From a virus (taxonomy: Duplodnaviria; Caudoviricetes), in IMG/VR virus record IMGVR_UViG_3300044253_000005, positions 4,568 through 68,567 of that record: a DNA stretch of 64,000 nt; one strand, written 5' to 3'. This document shows, piece by piece, positions 4,440 to 51,583 of the stretch (position 1 is its first letter; every line of letters starts with the position of its first letter). The notes beneath the pieces were generated by a model that saw only the letters and a program-made list of their open reading frames with translations, was not told the origin of the DNA and searched no databases. The position numbers were made by a program, and so were the translations under genes.

Positions 4440-4609
4440 GTGGACCTCCCCACGATTTGCGTTTCGCGGGAACCTACGCCGGGCAGCGGACGGTCGGAGT
4501 GCGAGGGGTAGGTGCGGGGCAGCGGGTGGTTGCGACGCAGGTGCCGGCCGACCGCCTTCGCGAAACTCCAGTAGAGCCAAAGGCCGACGAGGACGATCAG
4601 CAGCGTCAT
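4436..4609 (-). CDS. Small membrane protein
   Basis: Hydrophobic N-terminus MTLLIVLVGLWLYWSFAK; ATGA overlap with groES. Confidence 0.5.
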   Translation of the reverse strand: MTLLIVLVGLWLYWSFAKAVGRHLRRNHPLPRTYPSHSDRPLPGVGSRETQIVGRST

Positions 4610-4792
4610 GGCGCCGACTCTACCGGCCACACTCGACAACTCGACGCCGCGTTTCTCGCTGCGAGCGGGCTACACGCCAAGCAGCTCGCGCACGCGCTGG
4701 CGGACGTAGCGGCGGTAGCCAGCGTCGACCACCACCACGGCGAGCACGACGAGCAAGCGGGGAGGTCTCACGGGACGCGGATCGTAGAGGTC

Positions 4793-4892
4793 GACCGGGT
4801 CGCCGTCGGCTGCTCTGCCGTTTGAGCTACCCACGCCAGCACGGAGGCGAGGGACGGGAGTCGAACCCGCAACGTCCAGCGGCGGCCCGGTC
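4793..4892 (-). ncRNA. Circularly permuted tRNA-like RNA (YrlA/Y-RNA-like topology)
   Basis: 5'->3': GACCGGG C CGCCG C TGG A CGTT [T-arm GCGGG TTCGACT CCCGT] [CCCTCGCC TCCGTGCT GGCGTGGG loop-closed acceptor stem] TA [D-arm GCTC AAACGGCA GAGC] A G CCG A CGGCG A CCCGGTC; the two ends pair. Confidence 0.75.
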
Positions 4893-4894
4893 TA

Positions 4895-4993
4895 GGTGCG
4901 CCCGACGGGAGTCGAACCCGCTACCGCTGGCTTGAAAGACCAGTGCTCTTGAAGCACCCCGAAGGTTGCTCGTTACCGTTGAGCTACGGACGC
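4895..4993 (-). tRNA. tRNA-Glu(TTC) with a ~25-nt insertion in the D-loop
   Basis: Acceptor GCGTCCG/CGGGCGC, discriminator A then CC; anticodon arm CTGGT CTTTCAA GCCAG; T-arm GCGGG TTCGACT CCCGT; D-stem GCTC/GAGC with an expanded loop. Confidence 0.85.
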
Positions 4994-4999
4994 TCGGCC

Positions 5000-5005
5000 A
5001 GCCTA
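5000..5005 (-). promoter_or_regulatory. -10 element (TAGGCT) for the RNA locus
   Basis: TANNNT hexamer with 6 nt between it and G1 of tRNA-Glu, so the predicted TSS coincides with the tRNA 5' end. Confidence 0.5.
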
Positions 5006-5093
5006 TCGAACGGGGGCCCGGTGGCGATGCCATCCGAGCCCCCGACCCGTGTCTCAGTGGTCGAGCGCAAGCCTACGCGAGCGAGCGGCCGCG

Positions 5094-5294
5094 TCAGTCG
5101 CGGAACGGGAACCACGGAATGTGGCGACGCACGCGCTGGCGCCAGCGCTGCACGTTGCGGCGCTGCTCGAACCGCACGATCGCCGCGAGCAGACGCCCGA
5201 CGAAGCTGCGGCCGAGCTGCTCAATGATCGCGTCGCCGAGCGCGCGGTAGGCGTCCTCGGCCTCCTTCCACTCCTCCGAGAACGTCCGGTGCAT
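5094..5294 (-). CDS. Hypothetical protein (66 aa)
   Basis: ORF track; fits minus-strand gene packing. Confidence 0.45.
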   Translation of the reverse strand: MHRTFSEEWKEAEDAYRALGDAIIEQLGRSFVGRLLAAIVRFEQRRNVQRWRQRVRRHIPWFPFRD

Positions 5295-5441
5295 CAGCGG
5301 TTGCGCTTGCGCGAGCCGCGTGCGCGACGAGCTGCCTTGCGCCGGCGGCCGCGCTCGGCGGCGCTCAGCTTGCGCCGCTTGGGCGCCGGCGGATCGGCGG
5401 GACCGCTGAAGTCGTAGCAGTAGACGGGCATGGCCGAGATC

Positions 5442-6881
5442 CTACCCGAACTCGGAGTTGGAATAGCGCGAGCCTTTGCGCGGGCGCTTGGCCGGCTTGC
5501 GCTCGGTCTTCGCGCCGGCGGGCTTGCCGCGCACGGGGAAGACGTTGACGAGCAGGTAGCCGAGCGTGTCCAGCGGGTGCTCGTAGTAGCCGTCCTTCTC
5601 GTAGGTCTCCTTCAGGATCGGGTCGGCCGTGCTGCCCATCGGCGGCGCGCCCTTCGCCCACTGCGCCTGCTCCAGCGCCTCGGTGAGGAAGTCGCAGCCC
5701 ACGTGAATGTGGAGGCGGTCTTCCTTGAGCAGTTGCTTGATGAGCGTCACGCGATCGCGCGGCGCGACTTCGGCGGCGTTGACGTGGACGCCGAAGCGTT
5801 CGACGGTGAAGTGATCGCTCTCGGTGGCGACGCTGGTCTGTGCCTTGCCCGCCGGGTCGCAGCCCGCCGGCGCCTCCTCGGTCTTCACGCCGAGCTCCAG
5901 GTCGCGCACCACGACCTGCTCCATCATCGCCTGGGTGGTCATGCGCTCGGCGTGCAGTTCGGCGTAGACGTAGACGTGGCGCTTGGCCTCGACCTGGGCC
6001 CACAGGTGAATGCCGTGGTGGTAGCCGAAGTCGATCCCGCGCACCTGCGGCCAGTTCGCCTTGGGGTCGCGCTCGATGTCGACCACGTGGCGCGCGCGGT
6101 CGAACTCGTCGCGGAAGACCGACTCGCCGGGGAGCTGGAAGGCGTCAAGCCACTCGCTCGGGTACTCCTGGTGCAGCTCGCGCTCGGTCGGCATTTCTTC
6201 GCGCTTCTCCTCGTACCAGGCCTCGTCGCGTTCCGGGTGCGCGTCCCACGGGATGAACAGCGGGAAGAAGCGCGAGAGGCCGGAGATCGCCTTGCGCCAC
6301 TCGGCGGCGAAGGCGTTGTGGAAGCCGTTGGCCGTCGAGATCCCGATCAGCTTGCCGCCGGCGCTCAGCGTCGGCAGCAGCGACGTGAGGATCTTCGAGA
6401 TCCCCCGGATCTTCGCCCACTCGTCGATCATCACGAGCTGCGCCGTGATGCCGGTGCCGGCGAATTCGGTGGCGGGCAGCGAGTAGATCCGCGAGCCGTT
6501 GGCGAACTCCAGGTGGTCGACCACGTCCTTGACGAGAATCGGTCTCAGCTCGAGCGGCAGGCGTTTGTGCATGAAGCGCACGCGGTCGAGAAGCTCGATC
6601 GACTCGCGCAGCCCCCGGTTGAGGATCAAGCACGTCTGCCCCTCGTTGCAGCTCACCAGCCAGAGCATGTAGGCGAGCGTCAGCCAGGAGAGACCGAGCT
6701 GGCGCGCCTTCAGGAAGATGATGCGCGACTGGCGCTCGATCTCGTGCAGCGCGTCGACCTGGAAGTCCCACAGGTTGAAGGGGATCGGCGGACCACCTTC
6801 GCCCTGCTGGATTTTGCAGTGCGGGATGAAGTGCTCGGGCAGCAGCTTCGCGAGCTTGACGGCCTTCGCGGTGAGCGCCAT
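5442..6881 (-). CDS. terL: Terminase large subunit
   Basis: Walker A-like IIFLKARQLGLS, EFANGSRI, Walker B LVMIDEW, nuclease motifs RGIDFGY, CDPAG, HPLDTLGY. Confidence 0.93.
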   Translation of the reverse strand: MALTAKAVKLAKLLPEHFIPHCKIQQGEGGPPIPFNLWDFQVDALHEIERQSRIIFLKARQLGLSWLTLAYMLWLVSCNEGQTCLILNRGLRESIELLDRVRFMHKRLPLELRPILVKDVVDHLEFANGSRIYSLPATEFAGTGITAQLVMIDEWAKIRGISKILTSLLPTLSAGGKLIGISTANGFHNAFAAEWRKAISGLSRFFPLFIPWDAHPERDEAWYEEKREEMPTERELHQEYPSEWLDAFQLPGESVFRDEFDRARHVVDIERDPKANWPQVRGIDFGYHHGIHLWAQVEAKRHVYVYAELHAERMTTQAMMEQVVVRDLELGVKTEEAPAGCDPAGKAQTSVATESDHFTVERFGVHVNAAEVAPRDRVTLIKQLLKEDRLHIHVGCDFLTEALEQAQWAKGAPPMGSTADPILKETYEKDGYYEHPLDTLGYLLVNVFPVRGKPAGAKTERKPAKRPRKGSRYSNSEFG

Positions 6882-50761: not shown

Positions 50762-51583
50762 CTAGAGCAGGTGGGCGAAGCGATCGCGGTTGGCGAGCAG
50801 ATAGGGCGGCCACTCCTCCTCGGAGGAGGGCACGCACTGACGCCCCGCACGGTCGAACAGGTCGGCGCCCGTGAGCAGGCAGTCCGCGATGTGCGCCGAG
50901 TCGTTGAAGGGTGCCCGGTTGGCCTCGTGGTGAGCGTTTGAGGCGAGCTTGCGCTTCACGGCGTTGACGCCGCCGAGGTAGGCCATGTGCCAGCCGGCGG
51001 GCTCGCCGGCCATGTCGAAGTCGAGCGCTTTCGCGAGTCGGATCGCTTCGAGGTCGCCGCCATAGCTGTGCCAGAGCATGTCAGAGCTGAAGAAGCGCGC
51101 GATGCCCGGCAGCGGGCGGGGCCAGCGCCAGCGCATGGCGCCGACGTGCATCGCTAGGCGCGGCGCGGAGATCACGCCCCCGCGCGCGGCGCGGGCGGCC
51201 GAGTCGAACACGCCGGGGTGCGGGATCTCGTCGAGGTCTGAGAGCAGGATCGTCTCGGTGTTGCACAGCTCGGGCAGCCCGCGCATGAGCGCTTCGCGCT
51301 GGTGTTTCTCCCGTCGCCAGCAGTCCGAGTTGCTGTCTTCCAGGAGCTTCCTCGGTTCGCTCACCTGCGTGCCGCTCGGCATGTCCTCGACGGTGACGAG
51401 CTTGATCTTCTCGTGCCAGGGCTCGAAGCGCCCCCAGTGGCGACGCAGGTGCAGCGGCTTGGGCTCGCCGGTGTGCGTGACGGGCGCCTCGGCGATCACG
51501 TGCAGGTCGACGACAGGGTCAAGTGTCGCGAGGCGGATCTCCAGCACGTCCAGCTCGTCGTTGAAGGGCGTCAGCGCAATCAC
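50762..51583 (-). CDS. GT17-like (beta-1,4-GlcNAc transferase/MGAT3-like) glycosyltransferase
   Basis: FNDELDVLEIRL..L..VVD..VI.E..VTHTG.PKPL; ILLSDLDEIP; GWHMAYLGG. Confidence 0.85.
   Translation of the reverse strand: MIALTPFNDELDVLEIRLATLDPVVDLHVIAEAPVTHTGEPKPLHLRRHWGRFEPWHEKIKLVTVEDMPSGTQVSEPRKLLEDSNSDCWRREKHQREALMRGLPELCNTETILLSDLDEIPHPGVFDSAARAARGGVISAPRLAMHVGAMRWRWPRPLPGIARFFSSDMLWHSYGGDLEAIRLAKALDFDMAGEPAGWHMAYLGGVNAVKRKLASNAHHEANRAPFNDSAHIADCLLTGADLFDRAGRQCVPSSEEEWPPYLLANRDRFAHLL

Follow-up and report, generated by a model that had tools for sequence, protein, structure and literature searches.

A UUC tRNA with a fifth arm in the D-loop, shared by phages and a genus of Solirubrobacteraceae, as the probable reader of GAA codons

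The stretch of phage DNA analysed here (64,000 nucleotides of the IMG/VR record IMGVR_UViG_3300044253_000005; hereafter, the window) carries on its minus strand, at positions 4993..4897, a 97-nt tRNA gene with the anticodon UUC and five helical arms, the additional one being a hairpin inserted in the D-loop. The same design is the standard form of the sole UUC tRNA in a bacterial genus, and the phages carry this host-type form, contrary to a reading of the hairpin as an addition of the phage. We consider it likely that the molecule is a working elongator tRNA of host-type design which reads GAA, and probably GAG, as Glu, and which keeps the extra arm in its mature form.

The Rfam tRNA model RF00005 matched the gene from end to end (model positions 1–71 of 71) with 57.4 bits (gathering score 29) and with a single 26-nt insertion placed after G18-G19-U20 of the D-loop. 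The relatives of this tRNA score 56–68 bits with the same model, and the family-specific covariance model R1 gives 101.2 bits for the window copy, which is the sole tRNA detected by Rfam in the phage record; ARAGORN made no call at 4993..4897. Direct reading agrees with the Rfam match and bears out the earlier description of canonical arms intact plus an extra D-loop hairpin on a UUC tRNA. The span of 4895–4993 given at that time is the same gene but includes two C residues beyond A73, the tRNA itself ending at 4897. The acceptor stem (GCGUCCG/CGGGCGC) contains one U-G pair, the D-stem (GCUC/GAGC) consists of G10-C25, C11-G24, U12-A23 and C13-G22, and the anticodon stem (CUGGU/GCCAG) closes the loop CUUUCAA, followed by a variable loop of five nucleotides (CGGUA) and the T-arm GCGGG-UUCGACU-CCCGU. 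The discriminator is A73, after which CCA is encoded only in part, as CCU. The anticodon (4936..4934, minus strand) was assigned by direct reading and by Rfam, and the tRNA-Glu combination of anticodon UUC with U33 and A37 is present in all members of the family. The tertiary nucleotides of RF00005, namely U8, A14, G18-G19, A21, the T-loop UUCRA and the 15-48 pair, are all in place; U8, A14, G18-G19-U20, A21, the T-loop, A73 and the anticodon loop CUUUCAA are invariant in the 27 distinct sequences, and the 15-48 pair is G-C in 25 of them and A-A in two (the window and L003), both sides having changed jointly.

According to the Rfam alignment, the insertion occupies positions 4949..4974 (minus strand), between U20 and A21, and is made up of a 5′ linker AAC, the hairpin, and a 3′ linker CA plus A21, so that it reads AAC, GAGCAACC-UUCG-GGGUGCUU, CAA. 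The hairpin itself (4971..4952, minus strand) is read directly as an 8-bp stem with one A.G mismatch and a UUCG tetraloop, exactly as first described, and folds on its own with −7.4 kcal/mol. UNCG-type tetraloops are known for their stability. All 27 distinct relatives have an insert at this place, of 24–25 nt in size except for one of 28 nt. The family alignment fitted to the model misregisters the lower stem, and each insert was therefore also folded alone (RNAfold). In the alignment of the 27 distinct sequences, 92% of the cells are paired and 17 pairs have changed on both sides, a combination reached by none of 500 shuffles. Folded singly, each insert forms one hairpin, mostly of seven pairs, with eight (or seven plus a mismatch) in four cases and nine in one. 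Among the loops, UUCG predominates (17), followed by CUCG (4), UACG (3), UCCG (1) and UCAC (1), with one UAAU, in which RNAfold closes nine pairs and a 7-pair stem with an 8-nt loop is seen by eye. Stem levels 3–6 from the loop covary, and the four levels farthest from it adopt five or six pair types each. Conservation extends to the linkers, which read CAAC/CAAA 5′ of the hairpin and AA/GA 3′ of it. Overall, the hairpin length and the UNCG-type loop are kept, and the stem sequence varies freely.

An insert that keeps its site and size across 27 distinct sequences, with base changes that compensate for each other, recurs far beyond chance. The initial view that the insert is selected and does not reflect decay holds, given the double changes that preserve pairing, the constant length and the intact remainder of the tRNA. 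Furthermore, because the same tRNA is the sole GAA reader found in the host genus, the arm can be regarded as a selected element of a tRNA that probably works. Of the roles suggested for it at first, a sequence-specific protein dock is argued against by the free variation of the stem. A structural switch fares no better: the alternative fold, in which the first GAGC serves as the D-stem, does exist and is about isoenergetic (−35.8 versus −35.1 kcal/mol), but the alternative pairing is possible in only one of the 27 distinct members, the window sequence itself, and the switch reading was rejected for this reason.

The family was assembled from several directions. A blastn search of the window locus against 50,697 phage records returned no match, and the large terminase subunit encoded in the window is less than 37% identical to that of any phage among the matches listed. 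Two phage contigs with a terminase 75–77% identical carry the same tRNA at the same place, with an insert of 25–26 nt. The viral collection was scanned with patterns, one of which constrained the D-loop only and left the anticodon free; a pattern with the exact anticodon arm of the window had no matches, and looser patterns succeeded. With the covariance model R1, built from eight members, copies of full length were then retrieved from 12 further phage contigs and from bacterial assemblies (with labels including Solirubrobacteraceae and Acidimicrobiaceae), which answers the earlier proposal to look for similar D-loop-expanded phage tRNAs. All members carry UUC, whether reached via the terminase, via the D-loop-only pattern in the viral and genome collections, or via R1. 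Across the 13 phage contigs, that of the window included, the tRNA differs by up to about 40%, and the place and near-length of the arm are kept. An unpublished genome, G157, is included in two of the tallies; its locus was left out of the alignment, and none of the conclusions depends on it. Four loci that matched a pattern and not R1, namely L027 and the Collinsella loci L021, L023 and L024 (the latter three found with the D-loop pattern), were set aside as chance matches. On hairpin tRNAs (L016–L022, L029 and L012), ARAGORN reports Thr(ggt), Arg(ccg), Ala(ggc) or an undetermined type, because the extra arm is taken for the anticodon arm; automatic annotation of such genomes probably reports tRNA-Glu(UUC) as missing. 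The same program calls a 96-nt 'tRNA-Ala(cgc)' at window positions 51095–51190 (plus strand), which lacks the T-loop and D-loop consensus and has no Rfam match, and probably represents GC-rich coding sequence called in error.

The hairpin tRNA is concentrated in one genus of soil actinobacteria within the Solirubrobacteraceae. With R1 matches counted at E ≤ 1e-17 (83.5–109 bits; all but two matches 96 nt long) and with groups sampled around genome G001, it was detected in 90 of 101 genomes of the genus, compared with five of 151 at the level of the family, four of 151 at that of the order and one of 151, G001 itself, at that of the class. The host genomes are mostly metagenome bins, and their taxonomy was taken from record titles and the grouping supplied with the collection. 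G001 is a complete chromosome of 3.34 Mb, titled Solirubrobacteraceae, with a complete set of 45 tRNAs, each of which was typed; it encodes a tRNA-Glu(CUC) with a canonical body, and its sole UUC tRNA is of the hairpin type, miscalled as Arg by ARAGORN and located amid ordinary metabolic genes. The hairpin tRNA of L019 is chromosomal and not part of a prophage, its neighbours encoding a hydrolase, a deacetylase and a sugar kinase. A pattern consisting of the CUUUCA loop and a following T-arm found nothing but the hairpin type in 41 genomes of the genus. In four family members outside the genus, a canonical tRNA-Glu(UUC) of 73–75 nt is present. BLAST with the 73-nt tRNA-Glu(CUC) against the host genomes was too insensitive, and a strict pattern for canonical Glu(UUC), which matched in no genome, was replaced with a looser one. 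The hairpin design thus appears native to the likely host genus, where it would have replaced the canonical tRNA-Glu(UUC), no other GAA-capable tRNA having been found there. The gene is usually present in a single copy; in three genomes (G303:C8:109903-128461, G325:C3:723051-745216 and G326:C1:2199863-2203449), two to four copies lie within 4–30 kb, which may reflect local duplication or prophages.

Being the only UUC tRNA in G001 and, by pattern, in 41 genomes of the genus, the hairpin tRNA must read GAA, and GAA in these genomes behaves as a Glu codon. In 196 pairs of host orthologues within the genus, GAA faces Glu codons in 63.5% of cases (GAG 33%, GAA 31%), followed by Ala, Asp and Gln codons; the profile of GAG is the same, and Lys and Arg are absent from the top classes. 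The phage orthologues yield 67 aligned GAA codons, whose counterpart is GAA in 24 cases and GAG in 20. Because GAA and GAG interchange in host as well as phage genes, GAA is, by these alignments, Glu or a residue interchangeable with Glu.

The body of the tRNA is not that of a typical tRNA-Glu. In Escherichia coli, the determinants recognized by GluRS are U11-A24, U13-G22, the absence of nucleotide 47 and U2-A71, although actinobacteria may differ; the hairpin tRNA has C11-G24, C13-G22, a 5-nt variable loop and C-G at 2-71. Within G001, its body is closest to tRNA-Lys(UUU) (82%) and tRNA-Arg(UCU) (77%). Compared with canonical bacterial tRNA-Glu(UUC), it shares the anticodon, a nearly identical loop (CUUUCAA here, CUUUCAC in the canonical form) and the decoding slot beside tRNA-Glu(CUC), in which GAA behaves as Glu. 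In contrast, the D-arm, GUAGCUCAGUGGU..AGAGC here versus GUCUAG/GGUGUAG..GGAC/GCAC, the variable loop of five nucleotides instead of four and the 7–8-bp D-loop hairpin set the two apart, and the bodies are unrelated. The genus genomes searched contain one GluRS-family gene each, and comparison of this GluRS with those from outside the genus revealed no consistent extra domain, only small inconsistent insertions. We infer that the hairpin tRNA is aminoacylated by this single GluRS. Two further features of the synthetase complement were observed: the genus has an archaeal-type non-discriminating AspRS, compared with a long bacterial-type AspRS in five relatives outside it, and a short GluRS-like second gene, probably GluQRS, is lacking from the genus genomes and present in most sampled genomes of the remaining family.

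In the window, the tRNA is located between the gene for the large terminase subunit (5442–6881, minus strand) on one side and a GroES-like gene and the portal gene on the other. A TANNNT-type, −10-like box, TAGGCT (5000..5005, minus strand), ends 7 nt before G1, and boxes at a like distance (7–8 nt before G1) are present at L002 (TAGGAT), L003 (TAAGCT), L029 (TAGGCT) and L009 (TAGGAT). Scans of window positions 4500–5500 for sigma-70 promoters and intrinsic terminators gave no match. The recurrent box is a candidate promoter, from which the phage copy would probably be transcribed as part of the late (terminase–portal) region. The phage record (68.6 kb) is only about 65% complete, for which reason other tRNAs of the phage may be missing from it. 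Some of the related contigs carry tRNA arrays, such as that of L028, in which ARAGORN finds 29 tRNA genes and a tmRNA. In L028, L026 and L014, a canonical Glu(CUC) tRNA is accompanied by the hairpin UUC tRNA and no other UUC tRNA, and in L013, which is devoid of Glu(CUC), the hairpin tRNA is the only Glu-type tRNA found. The arrays of L013 and L028 also include a tmRNA-like gene, called by ARAGORN, whose tag peptide is long (L013:9130-9491, 25 bits with Rfam; L028:4069-4451).

Codon usage provides a rationale for the phage copies. GAA accounts for 29% (322/1105) of Glu codons in the phage and for 10% (300/2904) in the host, where the sample comprised 169 reading frames from the vicinity of tRNA and synthetase loci, i.e. 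it is used about 2.8 times more in phage than in host genes, which would explain why the phage carries its own copy. This resembles the tRNAs by which phages compensate for differences in codon usage, in that a single tRNA gene serves a codon favoured by the phage over the host; unlike in those cases, it is an aberrant host tRNA type that has been copied and not a standard cloverleaf. Most likely, the phage copy supplements GAA decoding in a host-compatible form. A tRNA supplied in the sole form that the host machinery uses for UUC points to the genus as the host, and the tRNA type and GC content, from which alone the host was deduced, together point to the hairpin-tRNA genus or a close relative.

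A second tRNA-like RNA adjoins the hairpin tRNA of the window. It occupies positions 4789..4893 (minus strand), beginning 3 nt downstream of the tRNA, and consists, in this order, of a T-arm, a loop-closed acceptor stem, a D-arm and a long terminal stem, an architecture of a circularly permuted tRNA mimic that was recognized from its fold and from a match to the Rfam YrlA family (36.5 bits, E 3.9e-6). The score is below the YrlA gathering score of 69, and the RNA cannot be counted as a member of that family. Both RNAs share an 18-nt T-arm. Neither the phage record nor 21 genomes of the candidate host genus encode a TROVE/Ro60 protein, and RtcB was not found in the phage record. Like elements lie beside the hairpin tRNA at L003:2370-2466 and L008:9504-9612, and most hairpin-tRNA loci are without such a neighbour. 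Two further odd tRNA-like RNAs adjoin the hairpin tRNA, at L008:9631-9719 and L025:1003-1125; one of the pair has a normal acceptor stem and D-arm with a long helix replacing the anticodon arm, and the other, of 123 nt, carries two hairpins in its D-loop and has an enlarged anticodon loop. Finally, a 92-nt tRNA in the phage array of L028 (L028:801-892, minus strand) has a differently built D-loop hairpin, GGCGG-CAAACA-CCGUC, and the anticodon loop UUUUCAC, so that its anticodon is again UUC.

Taken together, these observations favour a hairpin that would stay in the mature tRNA as a fifth arm, with the phage copy contributing to the supply of GAA decoding. In known tRNA structures, the nucleotides U20 and A21 face outward, and an arm leaving the D-loop between them could spare both the L-shape and the pairing of G18/G19 with the T-loop. 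The free stem sequence, combined with the fixed length (7–8 bp) and stable UNCG-type cap, suggests that the arm acts as a rigid shape or steric element rather than as a sequence-specific binding site, for instance as a mark of identity or anti-identity for a body unlike that of tRNA-Glu. A stronger version, which we advance tentatively and regard as rather improbable, is that the arm is an identity device which allowed a foreign Lys/Arg-like body to take over GAA decoding. The design may then have originated in phages, which show the greatest variety of its forms, and the genus may have captured it and lost the canonical tRNA-Glu(UUC), for example because the new form is spared by a toxin or defence nuclease that attacks ordinary tRNA-Glu. 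On this view, an essential tRNA would have been exchanged entirely, and in nature, for a five-armed substitute whose arm either marks it positively for GluRS or wards off LysRS, ArgRS or nucleases. Conversely, the arm might be neutral: the tRNA would decode GAA all the same, and a frozen insert would be kept hairpinned only since an unpaired 20-nt insert would disturb folding. The freedom of the stem sequence, the variation of the cap among UNCG types and beyond, and a GluRS without consistent change are what such an insert would predict. Yet deletion would offer an easy escape, and both the place and the near-length of the arm have nevertheless been kept in the 90 genus genomes and on the 13 phage contigs; the A-rich linkers are conserved too, and a second D-loop arm, of different build, occurs on a UUC tRNA at L028:801-892. 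A merely frozen insert is, in our judgement, doubtful.

Other readings concern the molecule as a whole. It is quite unlikely that the phage copy is itself a tRNA mimic, serving as a decoy for a tRNA-cutting defence system or as the partner of the adjoining permuted RNA. The proximity of the YrlA-like RNA with its identical T-arm, and the three tRNA-like RNAs in a row in L008, are suggestive of such a role, but the host genus has this very tRNA as its one chromosomal UUC tRNA, and ordinary phage tRNA arrays have it in their UUC slot; the family shows full conservation of the anticodon loop, the acceptor stem and A73, and the permuted neighbour is absent at most loci. An intervening sequence that is spliced out to leave an ordinary tRNA of 71–76 nt is a reading to which we give hardly any weight. 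Non-canonical introns of the bulge-helix-bulge type do occur in the D-loop of archaeal tRNAs (PMC3241643, PMC4090602), and the insert of 24–28 nt recalls them in position and size, both being additions of about 20–30 nt to the D-arm region of tRNA genes that are normal in other respects. In contrast to those introns, the insert belongs to a bacterium and its phages and forms a closed, capped hairpin. A bulge-helix-bulge motif, not apparent to the first-pass annotation either, is absent upon direct reading, which finds no 3-nt bulges around a 4-bp helix, and the tRNA-intron endonuclease (PF01974), detected in four archaeal control genomes, was not found in G001, G299, G296 or the phage record. 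The insert is also far too small for a self-splicing intron, and its UNCG-type cap is typical of a permanent structural element. Just as improbable is charging by a second LysRS, whereby GAA would stand for a residue other than Glu. The nearest relative of the body is indeed tRNA-Lys(UUU), and the genus genomes contain two full-length LysRS genes, compared with one in five relatives outside the genus. In paralogue b (L185 = G299:C1:2235800-2239800; L187 = G001), the motifs E-x-Y and N-G-F-S-E, which by E. coli LysS positions we take to belong to the lysine pocket, are altered to E-F-M and S-G-D-T-E, respectively. However, GAA interchanges with GAG and aligns with Glu, Ala, Asp and Gln, not with Lys or Arg, in host and phage alike; the altered pocket stays acidic, with an additional Asp, as suits a cationic substrate but not Glu; and the co-occurrence with the hairpin tRNA amounts to a single phylogenetic event. 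Furthermore, the frame of the second, class II LysRS of G299 runs without a stop into the alpha subunit of lysine 5,6-aminomutase, which points to lysine metabolism.

The five-armed tRNA has a structural counterpart in the class II tRNAs (Leu, Ser and bacterial Tyr), which are also natural five-armed tRNAs and whose extra helix is retained in the mature form and recognized by synthetases through its shape. The arm of class II tRNAs lies between positions 44 and 48; here, it sits in the D-loop, between positions 20 and 21, next to an ordinary 5-nt variable loop. A 2020 review of non-canonical natural tRNAs includes no D-loop arm among those given (PMC7609411), and a full-text literature search for a natural D-loop arm on a tRNA found no description. 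Structured RNA has been placed in a tRNA D-loop by engineering: an E. coli tRNA-Tyr with an aptamer between positions 16 and 18 was undetectable (PMC5397188), which by analogy suggests that D-loop inserts are not automatically tolerated. That insert was large, in contrast to the natural arm, which comprises 18–20 nt, follows position 20 and is conserved. The latter would offer a natural template for the tagging of tRNAs at a site where engineering failed.

Bacterial elongator tRNAs are regarded as structurally uniform. The hairpin tRNA suggests that an essential tRNA can bear a fifth helix, placed on the elbow side of its D-loop, and yet, by every genomic sign, be the sole reader of a common codon, and this five-armed GAA reader spans about a hundred species together with their phages. 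It also poses an identity problem, namely how GluRS would accept a body unlike that of tRNA-Glu. On the practical side, there is an annotation gap, in that ARAGORN misses the gene or assigns it to Thr, Arg, Ala or an unknown type, and genomes that carry it appear to lack tRNA-Glu(UUC). For the phages, the arm may serve as a host-range marker, since a phage tRNA that copies a lineage-specific oddity of the host points to that host.
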